Of a DNA stretch of 64,000 bases, positions 23,922 to 41,353 are shown one piece after another. The notes under the pieces were generated by a model that was not told where the DNA came from, searched no databases, and was given only the letters and a program-made list of their open reading frames with translations. The position numbers and the translations under genes are program-made. This DNA is from a virus. The stretch spans positions 1 through 64,000 of IMG/VR virus record IMGVR_UViG_3300029813_000275; one strand, given 5' to 3'. Numbering within the stretch: position 1 is the first letter of the stretch; the number at the start of each line of letters is the position of its first letter.

Positions 23922-24130
23922 TTTATTTTAAAATAAATTGTATCTTTTTTAATTGTTTTATCATAATTTTGAATACCATTCAGAGCATCTATTTGCCCCT
24001 GTCTGTATCCTTTATCAAAATTTCTGCTTTTAGAGCCTTCTGGATTATATGTACTTAATATAATCCAAAAAGATATAAATGCAACTGTGAAAGTAATCCA
24101 CCATAAAATTTTCCAAACATTTGTTTTCAT
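23918..24130 (-). CDS. small membrane protein
   Basis: 70 aa with N-terminal TM helix (WKILWWITFTVAFISFWIILS). Confidence 0.5.
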   Translation of the reverse strand: MKTNVWKILWWITFTVAFISFWIILSTYNPEGSKSRNFDKGYRQGQIDALNGIQNYDKTIKKDTIYFKIK

Positions 24131-24136
24131 AGTTAT

Positions 24137-24331
24137 TTAATTTTCTAATGATGATGGTATTTCAAACCTCAAGAAAAATATTTTTAATACATTAATTTCA
24201 GAATATGCATCATAAACAAATGAAAACAAATCTATGCTTTCATATTTAAACTTTTCATGTTCTATTTCTAAAATGTGAAATCCGAATAGTCCACATTTTC
24301 CTAAACTGATTGATAGTAAATTAATTTTCAT
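24137..24331 (-). CDS. hypothetical protein
   Basis: 64-aa ORF in minus-strand array. Confidence 0.4.
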   Translation of the reverse strand: MKINLLSISLGKCGLFGFHILEIEHEKFKYESIDLFSFVYDAYSEINVLKIFFLRFEIPSSLEN

Positions 24332-24335
24332 ATCA

Positions 24336-25247
24336 TTAATTTTTTACTACTGTGTAGCATGATAGGACAAGCCCCGGAAAGCCCGAATTCCAAAAATTAT
24401 CTACAAATTCCTCTAATACCAGTCCGGCACGTTCATTATCTGACTTTAACACGACAGCCTGAGCATATCCTAATACATGCCGACGAATGCCTTCCGGGTC
24501 TTCCTCTTTCAATCCATTGAGAATATTGCTTATTTTTTTCCATCCATCCCCTGAAATTAACGCCCTACATAATTCAATACTTTGTGATTGCTGTTCAGCA
24601 GACCTCTGGGCTACTTCCAAACGTTTTTCAGGATCAACCCTCAATACCTGGTCTAATATTTGAAGCGCGTTCCGGGGATAACCAAAACTATCCTGAATGA
24701 TTTGTTCATATACAATCTTTGGTAATGTCTCCTCTTCTGCTTTCACCACACTCCGCAGTAATCCGAACATTTGTCGTTCATTCAGAGATTTAACCTGAAA
24801 CTGGATGCAACGCCCTTTTATTGTCGATATCAGCTTTTGTGGTTCAGTAGTGCAAAGAACAAAATAAACATGTTCGGGGGTATCCTCTAATATTTTCAAC
24901 AATGCATTCTGGGCATCATTCGTATTTTTATGCACTTCATCCAATAACCATACCCGACAATCGCCTTCCAGAGGTTTAAAATGTGATTGCTTACGGATTT
25001 CACGAATAGTATCAATTCCCCGGAAATCTGCTGAATCCACTTCCCGGAAATCCTGTCCTTTGCATTCAAGCCGATTAGCTATAATACGTCCAATAGTGGT
25101 TTTACCACAACCGGTCGGGCCGTGTATAAGAAATGAATGAGGACATGTTTTTTTATTACTTAACATTTCATTCAAAGTATCAATCACTTCAAAATTACCA
25201 CGGATTTCATCCAAGGTTGTTGGTCGGTATTTAAGATATAGATTCAT
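24336..25247 (-). CDS. clamp loader AAA+ ATPase (DnaX/RFC-like)
   Basis: KYRPTTLDEIRGN...FLIHGPTGCGKTT (Walker A), WLLDEVH (Walker B), NALLKILEDTPEHVYFVLCTT, KGRC (SRC-like). Confidence 0.85.
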   Translation of the reverse strand: MNLYLKYRPTTLDEIRGNFEVIDTLNEMLSNKKTCPHSFLIHGPTGCGKTTIGRIIANRLECKGQDFREVDSADFRGIDTIREIRKQSHFKPLEGDCRVWLLDEVHKNTNDAQNALLKILEDTPEHVYFVLCTTEPQKLISTIKGRCIQFQVKSLNERQMFGLLRSVVKAEEETLPKIVYEQIIQDSFGYPRNALQILDQVLRVDPEKRLEVAQRSAEQQSQSIELCRALISGDGWKKISNILNGLKEEDPEGIRRHVLGYAQAVVLKSDNERAGLVLEEFVDNFWNSGFPGLVLSCYTVVKN

Positions 25248-25249
25248 TT

Positions 25250-25447
25250 TTAACTATTTTCATCTTCAATAAATTTATCAATATAATAAGCGTACAAAAC
25301 TGCATCCCCCTGGAAATTATTTCTATACCATATTCTGAATTCAATCAATGTTTCTCTTTGATACGCCTTCAGGATTGTTAGTGCATCCTTTTTTTCTCCT
25401 GCTTCAAGTAATTTTTCAATGTCATCTAATATGCTTTTTGCTTTCAT
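25250..25447 (-). CDS. hypothetical protein
   Basis: 65-aa ORF; preceded by TTTGTATAAT motif. Confidence 0.5.
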   Translation of the reverse strand: MKAKSILDDIEKLLEAGEKKDALTILKAYQRETLIEFRIWYRNNFQGDAVLYAYYIDKFIEDENS

Positions 25448-25485
25448 TATTTTATAAATGTTAAATTAATAATTCTTTTATATAT

Positions 25486-25495
25486 ATTATACAAA
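25486..25495 (-). promoter_or_regulatory. promoter-like motif TTTGTATAAT (copy 2)
   Basis: Minus strand AAAATTTTTTGTATAATATATA; 39 nt upstream of ATG at 25447, in the 54-nt gap after the polymerase gene. Confidence 0.5.
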
Positions 25496-25501
25496 AAATT
25501 T

Positions 25502-26896
25502 TTAAATTGAAATACTTTCCTTTTCAGCCCATGACCTATCTACCGGGCAAATCTCAAAATCCACGCTTAACGGAACGCTGATCCACGACCATGCTTTTCG
25601 CAAATCTTCACATGTAACACGTTTTATAACTTTCACAACATGTTGCAATTCAGTAGGGGCAACATCAAAAATTATTGAATCATGTATTTGTCCGATTAAT
25701 TTGGTATCCCATTGTTCTTTAATCATGATTTTATCCAATTCAATGAATGACCATAAAAGGCAATGAAAAGCAGAACCACTGATAGGATAATTAGTAACTT
25801 CTTTTTTATTCATTACCCCGCTGCACCGAAAACCGGTTAATGTATCAATATAACCACGCTTTTGATATATACCCCACCACCGGTTTTTCCATGCCTGATA
25901 ACCGGCAAACCGGTTTTCCCAGAAATCATATTCAATTTGTTCTATATGATCCGTAAAACCGTTAAAGGATTTAATGCCTTTTGATATTAAATGATCTGAT
26001 AAATGCATTTCTTCAGATATTTTAATTCCCTGTCCGTTTTTCCATTTACTTTGCGGTAATCCTCCCCAACGACATGCCAGATTCACACCGCAATTTTTAT
26101 AATAATCACCGTAAAACTCCGGAAATACAAAACCGTTTTTGGCAGCGCCCCTTAATATTTTATGCTCTACTGAAGATTCGTCAAATTTATCAATCATAAA
26201 AATCTGCTTCGCCATATCGGCATGCATATCAGAAGCCGGATTATTTATATATTTTATCATATTTGGATCATTGTGGTAGCAAGCACTTATACAAACTTCC
26301 AATTTTGAATAATCCACTTCCAGTAACTGATGCCCCGGACGGGGATATATTGCCTTACGGCAAGCCTGCATAGCTTCCTCGTCCCTGATTGGTATGTTCT
26401 GAAAATTCGGATGATCCGAACTGCTGCGATAAGTACGAACTAAATGCAAATTGAAAAATGGATGAATATAACCATTGACTTGTTCCCGCATGAATCCTTC
26501 TAGGTAAGTATCCCGTATCTTTTTCAATTTACGAATTCTCAATATATCATTCAATTCCGGTATGTTCAGTTGTGTCAAAGCATCCTCATCAGTTGATCCC
26601 TGCTCACCCACAGTTAATTTCACAGGTTTTAATCCTTTTTCCTTATACAAAAAATATCCTAATTGCATATTGGAATTAATATTTGGTTTATTTTTTGTTG
26701 TATGTCCCCAATGTTGGTAGAATTTACTTCGGTAAAATTTATCTTCTAACAGCTTTATTTTTTGAGTTAAATGTTGTTTTTGCTGTTCAATGTAATCTAT
26801 GTCTACACGGATTCCTTGTCTTTCGGCTCTGGAAAAAGCCAAAATACCAGAATGTAACAAATCATATGCTATTTTAATATTTGGATTAAGATTCAT
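25502..26896 (-). CDS. family A DNA polymerase, polymerase (thumb-palm-fingers) domain only
   Basis: HPNFQNIPIR, LLEVDYSKLEVC (motif A DYSQIELR-like), RGAAKNGFVFPEFYG (motif B), QIHDSIIFDV (motif C HDE-like). Confidence 0.9.
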   Translation of the reverse strand: MNLNPNIKIAYDLLHSGILAFSRAERQGIRVDIDYIEQQKQHLTQKIKLLEDKFYRSKFYQHWGHTTKNKPNINSNMQLGYFLYKEKGLKPVKLTVGEQGSTDEDALTQLNIPELNDILRIRKLKKIRDTYLEGFMREQVNGYIHPFFNLHLVRTYRSSSDHPNFQNIPIRDEEAMQACRKAIYPRPGHQLLEVDYSKLEVCISACYHNDPNMIKYINNPASDMHADMAKQIFMIDKFDESSVEHKILRGAAKNGFVFPEFYGDYYKNCGVNLACRWGGLPQSKWKNGQGIKISEEMHLSDHLISKGIKSFNGFTDHIEQIEYDFWENRFAGYQAWKNRWWGIYQKRGYIDTLTGFRCSGVMNKKEVTNYPISGSAFHCLLWSFIELDKIMIKEQWDTKLIGQIHDSIIFDVAPTELQHVVKVIKRVTCEDLRKAWSWISVPLSVDFEICPVDRSWAEKESISI

Positions 26897-27374
26897 GATT
26901 TTTAAACCATTTGTTTGGTGTTAATATCCTGTTAAAGTTCTTTATTACGCTTAAATCCCATATACAACCTCCTGATACATCCCAGGCACAAAACACCATT
27001 GAAAAAAATGTAAGAAAACTATTGTATTTAATATCAGAATAATTTATTATTTCAATTCCTTTATAATCATTCTTTACTTTTTTCCAATCAATATATGGTA
27101 CATTTTTTATCATACATTTTTCATATCTTTTTTGAAATTCACATAATTCACCATTATCTGATATAACAAATACATCAGTCATATCAATATCTAATTCAAA
27201 TAAATATTTTTTTATCCAATCAGGTTCTTCACCATAACACCAATCAAGCCATTCATTATTAATTCCATACCATAATCCAAGAGGTTTAAAACTTTCAATC
27301 CCTGAATAGCATTTAGAATTAATTAATGTTTTGGAATTCGTATTATGCACTCTTTTCATAATTTTCTTCTCCAA
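26886..27374 (-). CDS. hypothetical protein
   Basis: 162-aa ORF between the two polymerase genes. Confidence 0.55.
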   Translation of the reverse strand: MEKKIMKRVHNTNSKTLINSKCYSGIESFKPLGLWYGINNEWLDWCYGEEPDWIKKYLFELDIDMTDVFVISDNGELCEFQKRYEKCMIKNVPYIDWKKVKNDYKGIEIINYSDIKYNSFLTFFSMVFCAWDVSGGCIWDLSVIKNFNRILTPNKWFKNHES

Positions 27375-27574
27375 TTATATTCTGATGCTGATATTTTGAA
27401 TACTTCACATTTACTACCATCAGGCATCCAAAATTCAAAATCTTCCGGATTATATCCATTTTTTTTCAATTCATTAATCAATAATCCAAGCCAACTTTCC
27501 AGTGGGATATGTTTTTTACCATCAAATGCCGCGCTCACCCCGTTTGGAAAAGTATATACTATTTTTTTATTCAT
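27356..27574 (-). CDS. hypothetical protein
   Basis: 72-aa ORF between the two polymerase genes. Confidence 0.5.
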   Translation of the reverse strand: MNKKIVYTFPNGVSAAFDGKKHIPLESWLGLLINELKKNGYNPEDFEFWMPDGSKCEVFKISASEYNWRRKL

Positions 27575-27591
27575 GATTAAAATTTTTATTT

Positions 27592-27819
27592 CTAAATCTT
27601 AATAAACCACCATTCTCTGCCATCAGTGCAATAATTAAATTCAATCTTAATAATTGCTATACATTTATAATATCCAAGAATGTAATCTTCTATAAATTTA
27701 ATTACTTCCGGATAACAATGCCCTCTAAGCACAATGAAAGATTTACTATTATAAGCTAATCTTAGCTCATGTTTGTAATCATTTTCAATTTTTGTTTTTA
27801 TTTTTGTAAGCTGTTCCAT
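27592..27819 (-). CDS. hypothetical protein
   Basis: 75-aa ORF between the two polymerase genes. Confidence 0.5.
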   Translation of the reverse strand: MEQLTKIKTKIENDYKHELRLAYNSKSFIVLRGHCYPEVIKFIEDYILGYYKCIAIIKIEFNYCTDGREWWFIKI

Positions 27820-27847
27820 GGTTTATAGTTTTAAATAGTTTATAATT

Positions 27848-28756
27848 TTAATAAAAAAGAGGTTTACAAAGCGATCCTCTTAATACTATTTGTAAAGCCC
27901 GTTCATAAGTAATCTCATTATTTTTAATATTCATCATCTGTTCATACCTTTTTGATTCTCTCTTTTTTAATCTTTCAAAACGTGTTTTATCAAACATAAT
28001 ACCGAATGCACAATAAGCACATCCCGTAGATTTTTCTCCTTTATCATAAATATCACAATACTTTAAATTATTCTGCTTTATATATTTCCAAACATCTTCT
28101 TTTGTCCAAATTGATAAAGGCATGCATGTATTTCTTTTGGTATTAATACAACTGGTTTGGAGATAACAAATTCTTCTGATTCTGGAATCAATTGCTTTAT
28201 CACCTATAAACATTCCATCTTTTCGAAATGATTTCATAGGTTTTATCTTTAAAAAATCACAGCATTTATCACTAATATCAAAAGGCGCATTGATTAAATA
28301 TTGATATTTTTTCGGTAATTTGAATGATTTTGTCCTTGTTCCATCTCTTTTGATGCCTGTTAAATATAAATTTCTGGTCGCTTCATTACGGGGATTAGGA
28401 TGACGTAAATCCCATATCATTCGAGCTGTTATTTTACTTATTAAAGGAAATCCATATTTATTTATAACTTCAGTAAAAGTAATATCCGGCTTAACTATTT
28501 TAACATTGTCTGTATTTTTAACAAATTTCAAAATTTCAGAAAATTCATTTGTAGTATTTGAAAATACTGCTTTTTTGTTTTTATTTATCATTCTAATAAG
28601 ATGAAGCATTACAACGCTATCTATCCCTCCAGAGAACGCTATCGTACTATTTGGATACATAGAAAAAAAAGAATCAATAATGTATAAAGAATGATCTATT
28701 TTTTGTGATAATGTCCAATTAATTCTATCATTCAATTCTTTATTTGAAATTTTCAT
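27848..28756 (-). CDS. PAPS reductase-like PP-loop ATP pyrophosphatase
   Basis: STIAFSGGIDSVVMLHL (SGGxDS PP-loop as in the PAPS_reduct/DndC/IbrA family); C-terminal CAYCAFG cysteines; 302 aa. Confidence 0.7.
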   Translation of the reverse strand: MKISNKELNDRINWTLSQKIDHSLYIIDSFFSMYPNSTIAFSGGIDSVVMLHLIRMINKNKKAVFSNTTNEFSEILKFVKNTDNVKIVKPDITFTEVINKYGFPLISKITARMIWDLRHPNPRNEATRNLYLTGIKRDGTRTKSFKLPKKYQYLINAPFDISDKCCDFLKIKPMKSFRKDGMFIGDKAIDSRIRRICYLQTSCINTKRNTCMPLSIWTKEDVWKYIKQNNLKYCDIYDKGEKSTGCAYCAFGIMFDKTRFERLKKRESKRYEQMMNIKNNEITYERALQIVLRGSLCKPLFY

Positions 28757-30051
28757 TAAAAAGGCAAATCATTATAATTCATTAATTCCATTTGAAGCAT
28801 ACTTAACCTGTATGCATAAATTGCATCAAGCCCGCAATATTCTAATAGTTTTTCCTGGCCACCAGGCTGTTTCAATAATTCATAAATCCTATTCATATTA
28901 TTTCCACCCTTTGTTGTGGCCTGTAAATATGAGGTAATTTCACTTGCATAATCTACTATCCCAAAATTTACGTATGTCTGAAATTTTAAACCGGTAATAC
29001 CCGGTCGATTATCCAAAACATGAGCAGCTAACATGCTATCCCATATCCAGTTTTGAATTGGTTGTTGTAATTGTTTAACGCCCCACACCTCCTCAAATTT
29101 TATATTGTGTGCTATTTTACCGATGTTAGGATTAGCAAGTAAATCAATGAAAGGTTGTCGTGCTTTTCGACTTTTCGGCATCATAAACACAAAACATTTA
29201 TTTTCACTGATAGCCACAGCAGCACAAATAATCCGATGTCCTTTACTATGTGGTTTCAACCCGGTTGTTTCATAATCAATAGCAACTTTATCAATTTTAA
29301 TAATATGATCCCCATATTTACCTTGCAAAGCAGATAGAATAGATAAATCTTCAATCGTTTCAATATTTGGTTCTTGATATACTGGAAAATATTGATGTTC
29401 AGGAAAACGTTCATTTGTTTGTCTAATAGCACGTTCCAAATCCTGTATCCATACTGTTTCTACTTCTTTTTCCGAACGGCTTACATAGCTGGAATGAAAC
29501 ATTGGACAAATCCAGGTATTGAAATCCTGATCAGGTATTGCCCATCCCCGCCATTTCATTATCCCTCCTAAGTCTTTTTTCCAACGATGTGCCAATAAGC
29601 AATACAAAGCAGAATTTCCTAACAATACAATCACTTTTGGTCGGTATCGTTCAATTGTTTGTAATATATTTTTCCGGCAACAATCAATTTCATAATTATT
29701 TGGTGTTCGGTTAATTCCTTCCTTATCTATTGGACGGCAATTTACTGCATTAACATTTAAACAATCTTCAAATAAATCTATTCCTAATCTGCGATATGTT
29801 TTCTGAAGTAATCTACCAGTTTTACCTTGCCATGGTTTACCCCGTTTATCTTCAATCTCCCCCGGAGCTTCCCCGATGTTGAGAATGCCTTTTTTGAAAT
29901 TACCAAATGGTTTCATTTTTGGATTTAGTACATTTCTACATAATCCGCATGAAACGCAGGAATAAGTTTTGCCATCCGGGCGGAATTTTGATTCAGTTTG
30001 TTTTGTTGTAAAAAATCCTTGGTTCATAATGCTTTTTTCAAACGATACCAT
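28756..30051 (-). CDS. uracil-DNA glycosylase family-4 domain fused to PolA-type 3'-5' exonuclease domain
   Basis: N-terminus: CVSCGLC and GEAPGEIEDKRGKPWQGKTGRLL (UDG4 motif A), FHSSY (HPS-like motif B). C-terminus: VAIDYETTGL (Exo I DxE) and exonuclease-like remainder. Ends at the exo/pol domain boundary. Confidence 0.8.
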   Translation of the reverse strand: MVSFEKSIMNQGFFTTKQTESKFRPDGKTYSCVSCGLCRNVLNPKMKPFGNFKKGILNIGEAPGEIEDKRGKPWQGKTGRLLQKTYRRLGIDLFEDCLNVNAVNCRPIDKEGINRTPNNYEIDCCRKNILQTIERYRPKVIVLLGNSALYCLLAHRWKKDLGGIMKWRGWAIPDQDFNTWICPMFHSSYVSRSEKEVETVWIQDLERAIRQTNERFPEHQYFPVYQEPNIETIEDLSILSALQGKYGDHIIKIDKVAIDYETTGLKPHSKGHRIICAAVAISENKCFVFMMPKSRKARQPFIDLLANPNIGKIAHNIKFEEVWGVKQLQQPIQNWIWDSMLAAHVLDNRPGITGLKFQTYVNFGIVDYASEITSYLQATTKGGNNMNRIYELLKQPGGQEKLLEYCGLDAIYAYRLSMLQMELMNYNDLPF

Positions 30052-30383
30052 ATTTGTGGCATCATTATAGGTGGAAATCTATAACAAAAATCTTCTCCTG
30101 TAATTTCAATATATTCTAAACTATCTTTTTTATTAACGGAAATATCGTAAAAAGGTAATTTTATTTTATTAATAAGAGAAACATTTTTCTCATTAAAAAT
30201 ACAAGTAATAATTTTGATGCGTCTTTTTTTACTTCCAGGGTACATTAAATAAATAGTTTTATGAGATATTGTTTCTACTGGTTGTAATATAGTATACAAT
30301 TGTTCAAAAATACAGCTAATCTTTTCCTTAAAGGAAAATCGACGAACTTCCCAGTCACTAAAAAATGATTCCATATCAAACAA
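30024..30383 (-). CDS. hypothetical protein
   Basis: 119-aa ORF in minus-strand array. Confidence 0.5.
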   Translation of the reverse strand: MFDMESFFSDWEVRRFSFKEKISCIFEQLYTILQPVETISHKTIYLMYPGSKKRRIKIITCIFNEKNVSLINKIKLPFYDISVNKKDSLEYIEITGEDFCYRFPPIMMPQIWYRLKKAL

Positions 30384-30392
30384 TTTTTATTT

Positions 30393-31394
30393 CTATTCGT
30401 TCCATAACATTGATAAGTATTCCCAATTTTCACCTTCAAACTTCAAACGGTTTTCACCAAGTATACAGGTTAACGTTTCCGCCAAAATATCTTTTAAAAG
30501 ATATGGAGTAATGGAAAATGTTACCGGGTCACCATCATATTTCATATTTATTTCTTCTTCAAACCACCCAGAATCAGATTCACTTCTTACTTTTAATCTT
30601 TTATCTTTTAAAGTGATAATAATATGCTCATCCAAAAAATGATCGCGTTTACTAAATACAGTGGCGCGATCCAACACTTCATTAATAGTTTTCGGAAAGG
30701 TAATCGGAACACCTTCCACATCCATAAGATGAGCGCATTCAGGAAATTTATCTTCAAACACCCGGCAGGATATGATTGTCCCCTCATCAGTTTGAAAATG
30801 CACCCATCCTTCACCCTCAGTAATCATTTCCGGCTCTAATTTAATTAGTTCTGCAACTGATGTGGCCGGGATCAGGAATGTTTTAATAGGCATCTTTTCT
30901 TCTAACTGGCATCGGGTAATACGATAAGCATCCGACGCTTCAATAATATCTTCATTAATATGTACGCAAGTCAACGCCGGTCTACTCATATCGTGAGAAC
31001 ATGCTGCCATAGCAAATTTTATATGCTTAAGAAAATCTTCCGGTAATTTTTCCCATTTATCTTGTCTCCTGATTTCTTCCAGGGGTAATTTGATTTCCTG
31101 CTGAAGTGTTAGTCCGGCTTTTGCCCGGCCGGATTCCAAGATGATTTCATTCTCTTTTGTTGTAATTTCAATTTCATCCTTTTTAATTTTCCCCAGCAAT
31201 TTATATAACTCCTCAGCTTGAATAGCTCCTTCCATTTCCAGCCCTTCAACCGGATGAGAAATACTGATTTCATCATTGTATGTAACAACGCGCCCTTTCA
31301 TAAAGGCAAACGAATTGGATTGTTCAATCATTTCTTTGTTAGCCAACCCTGGCTTAACAATTTCTAATGCTTTTTGTAATTCTGTTTTGTTCAT
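30393..31394 (-). CDS. DNA polymerase sliding clamp (beta/DnaN-like)
   Basis: 333 aa; the N-terminus ELQKALEIVKPGLANKE....SFAFMKG.VVTYNDEISISHPVEG..MEGAIQAEELYKLL follows the DnaN pattern; adjacent to replication genes. Confidence 0.6.
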   Translation of the reverse strand: MNKTELQKALEIVKPGLANKEMIEQSNSFAFMKGRVVTYNDEISISHPVEGLEMEGAIQAEELYKLLGKIKKDEIEITTKENEIILESGRAKAGLTLQQEIKLPLEEIRRQDKWEKLPEDFLKHIKFAMAACSHDMSRPALTCVHINEDIIEASDAYRITRCQLEEKMPIKTFLIPATSVAELIKLEPEMITEGEGWVHFQTDEGTIISCRVFEDKFPECAHLMDVEGVPITFPKTINEVLDRATVFSKRDHFLDEHIIITLKDKRLKVRSESDSGWFEEEINMKYDGDPVTFSITPYLLKDILAETLTCILGENRLKFEGENWEYLSMLWNE

Positions 31395-31400
31395 TTTTTA

Positions 31401-31583
31401 TTATTTTAAATGTTTCTTTCTTGGATCACATCTACCAGTAATACAATATTGAGTTAATAAAACTTTAGTAATTTCTTGTTCCTTCAAAAAATAGAAACTT
31501 ACTAATCTTCTGTTTGCTTTTTTCTTGGTTAAACTTCTTCCAAGACTTCTATCAGTTAACCAAGTTGCCATATAGATTTTCAT
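31401..31583 (-). CDS. hypothetical 60-aa protein resembling the N-terminus of the adjacent DpdA
   Basis: MKIYMA...(18 aa)...RRLVSFYF versus DpdA MIIYFA...(17 aa)...RRLLSYFF. Confidence 0.35.
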   Translation of the reverse strand: MKIYMATWLTDRSLGRSLTKKKANRRLVSFYFLKEQEITKVLLTQYCITGRCDPRKKHLK

Positions 31584-40309: not shown

Positions 40310-41353
40310 TTATTCCTCCTTTATATTAATTTTAGTTCCAAAAAAATTCATTAATCGATTTATTGAACCAATTAGGTCAGAAAATTTATCAAGTGTTGTT
40401 AATTCAAATTGCATGTTCTTTATCCTTTCAACTTTCATGTTGCCTAATCTATCATTGATGGAAGATATGGTTCTGAAAAGTTTCCCAGATTCATATAGGA
40501 TATTTTGAATTTCTAAAAGTATGTTTTCTATTTCCATATCTCGATTACTTTTTCCATCTAATTCTTGTTTGATCATTGTTTTCATGGTTGGTTCAAATGA
40601 TCGACGCATTCCATGCACTTTTTTATCTTTGCTTCTACCTTTAAAAGAATCAATTCTTGTTTTAACTTTTTTAGCAACTTCAAGTTCTTTTTCTTTTGTG
40701 ATATCCCTTCGTGGTTCTTGTTCTTTGATTTCACCTATGGATTTTTTAAAACTTGATCTGACACTGGTATTTCCAAAGGCTTTTGCTATTTTAATGTCTG
40801 TTTCTTCTCCATCCAACACTTCTAATGCTTTTTGTATGCTATATTGTTTCCAGGGCTTTCCAAGAAATTTAAGTATAATTGGCCAACCAACTCCTTGGTT
40901 TTTTAATCTTATCCAATATTCTGGGTCTTTACTAAAATCAATGAAAAGCATATAAAAGGTTTCATTTATATGCTTTAATTCTTTCCAAGAATTATATTTT
41001 CGTATTTCGGTATTGATGAAATCACGGACAGCCCGAATCGTTTCAATCTTTACAGCATCATCAAATTTCCAGTATTCCATATTTTCATTTGCCATTATAC
41101 GTACCATTGTAGAATTATCCAATTTTCTAACTGGAATATCAACTTTCTTAATGTTGAGTTCTTGTAAAGCTATTAGGCGGTGATGCCCATAAGCAATTTG
41201 GTAAGAACCATTTTGTTGTCTTGCTACAATATTATCCCAGAATGTTGTTTCAGAAATTGATGCTTTTAAAGCATCTACTTTCATTCTATCCACAGGATAT
41301 TTATCCATATTACGATATGGATTTGGTTTGAGATCTTTTACTTGTACTTTCAT
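40310..41353 (-). CDS. ParB-like nuclease-domain protein
   Basis: VKDLKPNPYRNMD....D...V.AL..SI........NIVARQ..NGSYQIAYGHHRLIAL is the ParB/Srx N-terminal domain signature; 347 aa. Confidence 0.75.
   Translation of the reverse strand: MKVQVKDLKPNPYRNMDKYPVDRMKVDALKASISETTFWDNIVARQQNGSYQIAYGHHRLIALQELNIKKVDIPVRKLDNSTMVRIMANENMEYWKFDDAVKIETIRAVRDFINTEIRKYNSWKELKHINETFYMLFIDFSKDPEYWIRLKNQGVGWPIILKFLGKPWKQYSIQKALEVLDGEETDIKIAKAFGNTSVRSSFKKSIGEIKEQEPRRDITKEKELEVAKKVKTRIDSFKGRSKDKKVHGMRRSFEPTMKTMIKQELDGKSNRDMEIENILLEIQNILYESGKLFRTISSINDRLGNMKVERIKNMQFELTTLDKFSDLIGSINRLMNFFGTKINIKEE

Follow-up and report, generated by a model that had tools for sequence, protein, structure and literature searches.

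A family A DNA polymerase with an N-terminal uracil-DNA glycosylase domain, divided between two genes in a clade of uncultured phages

When the proofreading and polymerase domains of a phage replicase lie in separate genes almost two kilobases apart, do their products still form one enzyme, and did the genes between them bring about the division? This question is raised by positions 25502-30051 of a 64,000-nucleotide stretch of viral DNA (here called the window) from the IMG/VR record IMGVR_UViG_3300029813_000275. On its minus strand an open reading frame (ORF) of 431 amino acids (aa) joins a uracil-DNA glycosylase (UDG) and a 3'-5' exonuclease domain, and a second ORF of 464 aa encodes the remainder of a family A DNA polymerase (PolA). 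The locus was singled out in a reading of the letters and an ORF list (the original prediction), whose coordinates, strand, ORF lengths and domain content proved correct in every material point. Altogether our analysis favors, with a probability of roughly 0.85, a model in which the locus encodes one two-subunit family A replicase that arose by an old fission in the linker of a single-chain UDG-exonuclease-polymerase ancestor, was inherited by a clade in the divided state and gathered its passengers in the gap later.

Results

The two genes hold a complete set of UDG, exonuclease and polymerase domains

The 431-aa protein (28756..30051, minus strand) matches the UDG profile PF03167 over residues 49-195 (2.9e-21) and DNA_pol_A_exo1 (PF01612) over residues 250-416 (6.8e-10; 39.4 bits against a cut-off of 23.6). 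Its AlphaFold 2 (AF2) model, with a predicted local distance difference test score (pLDDT) of 87.5 and a predicted template-modelling score (pTM) of 0.85, finds its best fold match in the UDG-PolA of phage phiLo (9qhs), followed by family-4 UDGs and DnaQ-like exonucleases. The UDG domain (about aa 29-213; 29413..29967, minus strand) was delimited by phmmer alignment to T. maritima TM0511/1L9G (8.7e-19) and to the T. thermophilus family-4 UDG, together with conservation in 40 subunits of the split clade described below, and its fold superposes on TM0511 with TMt 0.83, a root-mean-square deviation of 2.0 Å and 35% identity. It carries motif A as GEAPG (60-64), motif B as FHSSY (185-189, the His being H186), an ED-x-x-G-x-P-x-x-G-K-x-G-x-L-L segment and four conserved cysteines, C32, C35, C105 and C125, which stand at the ligand positions of family-4 UDGs and are the probable Fe-S ligands. 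Motif A, the motif B His, the four cysteines and the alpha/beta fold, the features that define a family-4 UDG, are thus all present. The CxxCxxC that had been read as one motif holds in part: C32 and C35 are conserved but the third cysteine, C38, is not, its place being taken by Tyr in 27 of 40 relatives.

The DEDDy-type 3'-5' exonuclease domain (about aa 229-423; 28783..29367, minus strand) is identified by its PF01612 score and by its motifs, Exo I D259/E261, Exo II N316/E320 and Exo III Y405/D409, none of which varies among 40 split and 77 fused relatives; in every one of these the Exo II acid is Glu (E320) and not the usual Asp. The ORF stops a few residues past the last predicted helix (398-423 of 431), so the predicted family-4 UDG-exonuclease fusion that ends at the PolA exonuclease boundary is borne out.

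The 464-aa protein (25502..26896, minus strand) matches DNA_pol_A (PF00476) at 1.8e-49 (169.1 bits against a cut-off of 34.3), and the match begins at profile position 2, protein residue 34. Bst and Klenow Pol I match it at 1e-27 from the exonuclease/polymerase boundary onward. Its residue 20 aligns with residue 213 of the Klenow-fragment chain (approximately Pol I residue 536), which places residue 1 at about 517, the classical exonuclease/polymerase boundary. Motif A (DYSKLEV; D195, E200), motif B (R249/K253/Y262-G263) and motif C (IHDS; H405, D406) are invariant in relatives and, with the profile score, establish the protein as a PolA. The ORF had been described as starting with the thumb and carrying motifs A, B and C; it is indeed a complete thumb, palm and fingers domain. 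Motif C reads HDS in the consensus of the split clade and HDA in that of fused relatives, against the usual HDE, with H and D invariant. Some relatives have polymerase subunits with 140-240 extra N-terminal residues (P0093, 609 aa; P0117, 660 aa; L048:909-2933), the extension of P0093 being a glucosaminidase (PF01832) domain; these look like a gap passenger fused to the polymerase gene, or a mis-called start.

The split is older than the genes that lie within it

Between the two genes lie 1,859 bp (26897-28755) that hold four tightly packed ORFs on the same strand. The first (27848..28756, minus strand) encodes a 302-aa PP-loop protein of the 3'-phosphoadenosine 5'-phosphosulfate (PAPS)-reductase fold (PF01507, 4.3e-26; phrog_424, 1.5e-38), and its start overlaps the stop of the exonuclease gene as TAATG. 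The second (27592..27819, minus strand; 75 aa) and third (27356..27574, minus strand; 72 aa), taken from the ORF list, had no family match in profile searches, and the fourth (26886..27374, minus strand; 162 aa) matches phrog_8582, a family whose function is not known, and runs 11 nt into the start of the polymerase gene. The arrangement agrees with the 1.86-kb gap, four ORFs and overlapping PAPS-reductase-like start noted originally. Promoters and terminators were no more numerous at the locus than in shuffled sequence, and thus offered no sign of separate transcription units.

With 25400-30100 as the query, blastn yielded no match among 50,697 phage records, so comparisons were made at the protein level. 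The nearest relatives proved to be about 67-72% identical in protein. The search retrieved more than 120 clusters of ~460-aa polymerase-only proteins with 60-71% identity to the window's polymerase (2,839 proteins at E<=1e-20 fall in this length class), and many single-chain UDG-exonuclease-polymerase relatives of 860-880 aa with 50-63% identity. Contiguous genes, for which the original prediction had proposed to look, thus exist as fused forms, and the split, at one boundary throughout its clade, predates the insert. In all 70 IMG/VR loci that hold both halves, these are separate ORFs, exonuclease then polymerase, on one strand and cut at the same boundary. The distance from exonuclease stop to polymerase start ranges from -11 to 2,254 nt. 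It is 20 nt or less, with no insert, in about 24 related loci, where the abutting ORFs are mostly in different frames and use all three stop codons; in locus L066 the two halves abut in the same frame across one stop. Separate genes, a cut at the domain boundary and conservation across a clade are the marks of an exonuclease/polymerase split, and the locus has all three. With two ORFs 1,859 bp apart it is not a single-chain UDG-PolA; the pair is orthologous to the fused forms and, judged by sequence comparison, the locus probably works like a UDG-PolA.

The gap was surveyed in the best 80 of 317 IMG/VR matches (two more distant loci were retrieved besides), and its cargo falls into at least 29 unrelated families. 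Those that could be annotated include an N6/N4 DNA methylase and several C5 cytosine methylases, radical SAM proteins, of which one carries a SPASM domain, a TET-associated glycosyltransferase (TAGT) and, in the L046/L047 gap only, a GIY-YIG endonuclease; most of the small cargo ORFs of relatives had no family in a Pfam search. Homologues of the window's four ORFs were found in the exonuclease-polymerase gap of none of the 80 loci, and a weak PAPS-reductase match (23%) in L021 lies outside the gap. Since many relatives have the same split without an insert and the cargo varies by lineage, the fission predates the four genes, which on this comparison are lineage-specific passengers. The idea, implied by the original prediction, that the four-gene insert caused the split has to be given up for the same reasons. 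The 162-aa ORF was considered as a polymerase accessory and rejected, being absent from all relatives surveyed.

The clade's polymerase gene is an intein hotspot, with insertion within the polymerase domain: around 40 of the retrieved polymerase-subunit clusters (P0095, P0123-P0130 and others) have PF14890 inteins, often with HNH or LAGLIDADG, and the window's copy is intein-free. In L069 (1014-3401) the UDG-exonuclease subunit reaches 795 aa through a LAGLIDADG intein in its exonuclease part (PF03161, 6.6e-31; PF14890).

Fission, re-fusion and the LPF tail

The history of the split was traced with FastTree in 204 polymerase domains, for which two fused polymerases, those of Lysinibacillus phage LysYB1 and Edwardsiella phage ZHS, served as the root. 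The basal grade is fused, and one clade of 122 (support 75), nearly all split, contains the window; the tree requires six changes between the split and fused states. A second, quick tree (IQ-TREE, LG+C20, 62 rows) agrees: at least five changes follow from its starred branches, and none of 500 label shuffles was as clustered. Within the split clade, fused proteins are nested as sisters of split ones (P0121/P0118, support 100; P0122/P0073, 100; P0131/P0090, 99). Both trees use metagenome protein clusters of unchecked completeness.

Junction alignments are in keeping with this history. In basal fused proteins the last exonuclease helix and the first polymerase helix are joined by a linker that is short and variable, split polymerase subunits begin M-x-x-N-P, and the re-fused P0122 and P0121 retain LPF and VPL in their linkers, residues that by sequence read as the scar of a split ancestor. 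For P0122, a natural re-fusion, the AF2 model (pLDDT 92.9, pTM 0.90) superposes on Klenow over ~690 columns of exonuclease and polymerase with TMt ~0.8, and its only internal weak block, residues 401-410, is exactly the fission point.

The LPF of P0122 has its counterpart at the C terminus of the exonuclease subunit in the divided enzyme. The exonuclease subunit of the window ends in Leu-Pro-Phe (LPF; 28759..28767, minus strand), a tail defined by its clade-specific conservation: about 56 of 70 split relatives (~80%) end in LPF, and in L033 it stands four residues before the end. All three of its codons and the stop codon vary synonymously, which shows that the constraint acts on the protein. 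Among fused relatives it is absent from 75 of 77, the exceptions being the nested, re-fused P0122 (LPF) and P0121 (VPL). In the model of the isolated subunit the tail has low pLDDT and is disordered, and we speculate that it acts as a peptide by which the subunit docks on the polymerase or the clamp. At the other end of the same subunit, within a disordered segment, residues 10-16 form an (E/Q)GFFTxKE motif whose (E/Q)GFF is conserved in 35 of 40 split and 68 of 77 fused relatives; it is perhaps a candidate short linear motif for binding a partner, such as the clamp.

The UDG domain has also fared differently in the two states. Motif A and the motif B His are near-invariant in the split clade (37-39 of 40), whereas among 77 fused relatives GEAPG is kept in ~14 and the His in 29, all of them retaining the four cysteines. 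Given these conserved residues, the TM-score of 0.83 to TM0511 and published UDG-PolAs whose UDG is active (PMC13697223), uracil surveillance by this domain, as the original prediction had suggested, is plausible.

Two further loci offer points of reference. In a GenBank metagenomic podovirus (MW202554.1 1727-4364) the UDG-exonuclease and the polymerase are annotated as two adjacent 'DNA polymerase' CDS ~150 bp apart, with a ParB-like gene just upstream. Edwardsiella phage vB_EpM_ZHS (OM621816.1 38959-42687) has a DnaN-like clamp, a single-chain UDG-exonuclease-polymerase, a small ORF and a clamp loader in the same gene order as the window, and can serve as a cultivable, distant reference (~25% identity) for the unsplit state.

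Genomic context and the 7-deazaguanine module

The source record is 69,105 bp long, bounded by direct terminal repeats (DTR), and has a G+C content of ~32%; the window is most of it, and the whole genome has one PolA locus. The two genes belong to a minus-strand replication operon that begins at 31394 and extends to 24336, in the order DnaN-like clamp, 119-aa ORF, 431-aa ORF, ORFs of 302, 75, 72 and 162 aa, 464-aa ORF, 65-aa ORF and clamp loader. The clamp gene (30393..31394, minus strand) is recognised through weak matches to PF02767 and PF02768, and the gamma/tau-like AAA+ clamp-loader gene (24336..25247, minus strand) through PF13177 (2.9e-25). This setting is conserved, with the clamp gene upstream of the exonuclease gene in 33 of 33 related loci that have at least 4 kb of upstream flank, and the clamp-loader gene downstream of the polymerase gene in 67 of the 70 that hold both halves.

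Just upstream are encoded FolE, QueD, QueE, a short QueC and a DpdA-like transglycosylase, and at the level of gene content it is reasonable to suppose that the genome carries a guanine modification. The original prediction had suggested that the UDG domain may have been repurposed for DNA binding or for sensing modified bases in a genome that replaces G with a deazapurine; a deazapurine sensor is an idea that we reject. The motifs of the domain are canonical; UDG-PolAs by far exceed the deazaguanine module in age and spread; and of the 33 related loci whose exonuclease gene has 4 kb or more of upstream flank, 22 show dpdA and 20 folE, with no dpdA or folE there in about a third. DpdA-type modification is, moreover, post-replicative. 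In locus L001 (640-2040; IMGVR_UViG_3300025600_000019, 43% identity) the GTP cyclohydrolase I (FolE) gene inside the 7-deazaguanine module itself has an HNH intein (PF14890, 5.3e-14; PF13392).

The PAPS-reductase-fold gene (27848-28756) co-occurs in the window with a gene for a ParB_N-domain protein at 40310-41353 (PF02195, 2.6e-08), a pairing that recalls IbrA/IbrB- or Dnd-like DNA-modification pairs.

Discussion

How could a polymerase in two pieces replicate a phage genome? We envision a scenario in which an SPO1-like ancestor of the "active UDG" type underwent fission in the flexible linker that joined its exonuclease domain to its polymerase domain, and the split state was then passed down a large clade of uncultured 55-77-kb phages. 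The two proteins would reassemble non-covalently in the Klenow-like geometry of the single-chain enzyme, the replicase would cooperate with a sliding clamp and a clamp loader that the phage itself encodes beside the locus, and the UDG domain would scan the template for uracil as in the solved UDG-PolAs. The site between the two cistrons would be a permissive slot in an essential, co-transcribed replication operon, which lineages fill with different passengers, in the window a PAPS-reductase-fold protein and three small ORFs that would be translationally coupled at both ends. More speculatively, the LPF tail may have arisen on the exonuclease subunit after the fission, binding the polymerase or the clamp and partly replacing the lost covalent link. 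Family A polymerases are reported to need their exonuclease domain for stability (Czernecki et al.; PMC10201439).

The original claim that the replicase must assemble from two polypeptides gains comparative support from the conserved split, the retained catalytic residues, the invariant gene order and the Klenow-like re-fusions; from these and the P0122 model we infer that the subunits probably associate. Several observations weigh against this account or limit it. The structural argument is built on the re-fused relative P0122 and not on the window's own two chains, and the three re-fused proteins are single-contig observations that could include assembly or frameshift errors. The support of the split clade in FastTree is moderate (75) and the deep branches of IQ-TREE are weak, so the number and direction of the deep state changes are not firmly resolved. 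Independent splits in L001/L002 (43% identity) and in MW202554 show that fission recurs. Finally, about 20% of split exonuclease subunits lack LPF, and the tail is thus not essential for the two-subunit state.

Of the alternatives, the one that fares best, improbable as we consider it, is that the two products are independent: a stand-alone polymerase without an exonuclease, and a free UDG-exonuclease that serves in repair or proofreads in trans, binding transiently or via the clamp. Proofreading in trans exists elsewhere, as with the epsilon subunit of E. coli, and the N-terminal GFF and C-terminal LPF are disordered short motifs of the sliding-clamp-binding kind. Independent enzymes sit poorly, however, with an exonuclease-to-polymerase order and strand that 70 of 70 loci retain although the gap varies, and with collinear re-fusions that are predicted to form one compact enzyme (pTM 0.90).

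A recent mobile cassette, consisting of the PAPS-reductase gene and three small ORFs, could instead have broken a contiguous polymerase gene, in a genes-in-pieces event of the kind seen with mobE in nrdA of Aeh1. The approximately 24 loci with the same split and a gap of at most 20 nt, and a cargo that differs by lineage and is shared with the window in none of 80 loci, place the split before the cargo and largely refute this reading for the window. In relatives the locus is indeed a hotspot for mobile elements, namely the GIY-YIG gene in the L046/L047 gap, the LAGLIDADG intein in the L069 exonuclease and the inteins of polymerase genes, yet profile searches of the window's four gap ORFs found no endonuclease domain, and a free-standing HNH, GIY-YIG or LAGLIDADG gene is not among them. 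We consider a cassette origin highly unlikely.

That a fused polymerase is still made through RNA splicing, protein trans-splicing, programmed frameshifting or stop read-through is scarcely credible: inteins are common in the family's polymerase genes, group I introns are known from SPO1-type polymerase genes, and some relatives' ORFs abut (in L066 in frame across one stop), but the window's halves are separated by 1.86 kb of densely coding, overlapping ORFs, an Rfam scan of 24000-31500 for introns and ribozymes found no match at E<=1, Pfam found no Hint or intein domains or halves in any ORF of the locus, the exonuclease ORF ends right past the last exonuclease helix, the polymerase ORF begins with Met at the domain boundary (the inteins of relatives sit within domains), and abutting relatives are mostly in different frames and use all three stop codons. 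The original prediction had likewise seen no intein or intron signatures.

The divided replicase that we favor has several published counterparts, and three of its elements, the UDG-PolA fusion, the exonuclease/polymerase fission and a split PolA with intervening genes, have each been described before. Close in kind are the PolAs of T7-like cyanophages such as S-SBP1, in which the gene has undergone fission between exonuclease and polymerase and the complex is predicted to be preserved (Czernecki et al. 2023, Nucleic Acids Research, PMC10201439); an exonuclease/polymerase split had been noted earlier in uncultured cyanophages (10.1101/325100). Both systems are cut where the 3'-5' exonuclease domain meets the polymerase domain, run from exonuclease to polymerase in two genes, have their new termini in a solvent-exposed linker and have a complex that is inferred. 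The S-SBP1-like enzymes are T7-like cluster 5 PolAs without a UDG, and their genes overlap via a frameshift with no intervening genes, whereas the window's lineage has a UDG on the N-terminal piece, gaps of up to 2.25 kb with variable cargo, and the LPF terminus. Judged by its nearest named relatives (Edwardsiella phage ZHS, SPO1-like Bacillus phages and phiLo), all of which carry a UDG, the locus falls outside T7-like cluster 5. In LUZ24-like Pseudomonas phages a 'DNA polymerase part I' (3'-5' exonuclease) and a 'part II' are separated by about ten small ORFs (PMC3890496). Here too a family A exonuclease gene and a polymerase gene lie on the same strand with ~2 kb of unrelated small ORFs between them; unlike the window, these are cultured phages whose polymerase has no UDG domain and belongs to an unrelated PolA lineage.

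Among single-chain UDG-PolAs, the N4-like enzymes have an inactive UDG and the SPO1-like and SP15-like ones (YerA41, phiLo; Missoury et al. 2026, Nucleic Acids Research, PMC13697223) an active UDG, and cryo-electron microscopy shows that the UDG domain scans the template ahead of the fork (PMC10201439, PMC13697223). The SPO1-like, SP15-like and N4-like (cluster 17) enzymes share with the window the order of an N-terminal family-4 UDG, a 3'-5' exonuclease and a polymerase, and the SPO1 and SP15 types also the retained catalytic motifs of the UDG; they differ in being one polypeptide where the window has two. The window further lacks SP15-type inserts and encodes a 7-deazaguanine module, not a thymidine hypermodification pathway.

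The T4-like phages have genes in pieces as well: gp43A/43B of Aeromonas phages 25 and 44RR, nrdA-mobE of Aeh1 and gp39/gp60-mobA of T4; in Aeromonas phage 25 the two parts of the family B polymerase, gp43A and gp43B, co-purify and are active (PMC2988022). As in the window and its relatives, an essential enzyme of replication or nucleotide metabolism is encoded in two reassembling cistrons (reassembly being our proposal for the window), the gap at times holds a free-standing homing endonuclease, and TAATG start/stop overlaps suggest translational coupling. However, gp43 is a family B polymerase, and in the T4-like cases the endonuclease is believed either to have caused the split or to have settled in it early, whereas in the window's clade many relatives are split without an insert and most of the cargo is not an endonuclease. 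This case contributes the pairing of a UDG-exonuclease subunit with a separate polymerase, the scale and age of the clade, the dynamics of fission and re-fusion, the LPF tail and the DNA-modification flavor of the cargo.

Two further ideas can be joined in a tentative proposal that we think rather unlikely to hold in full, namely that LPF-COOH is a dedicated tether to the polymerase or the clamp and that the slot preferentially recruits DNA-modification or anti-restriction genes, such as those for methylases, radical SAM proteins, the TAGT glycosyltransferase and PAPS-reductase-fold enzymes, for expression timed with the polymerase. If this were true, the tether would be a new replisome interaction motif, and a change of function linked to the two-subunit state would account for UDG catalytic residues that are strictly kept in the split clade but eroded in fused relatives.

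Our findings extend the natural exonuclease/polymerase split of family A, described for T7-like cyanophages in 2023 as the first of its kind but already visible in older LUZ24-like annotations, to a UDG-carrying PolA lineage, in which it appears to be old, widespread (hundreds of protein clusters) and reversible. One practical consequence is that a virome gene of ~460 aa that encodes only the polymerase domain should not be taken for an exonuclease-deficient polymerase, and that diversity surveys based on PolA should search up to several kilobases upstream for its partner. The fused, split and re-fused sisters of the clade constitute a natural experiment on the role of covalent linkage and on how a new terminus gains an interaction motif, and searches for new phage genes of DNA modification or anti-defence may profit from looking in the variable gap.

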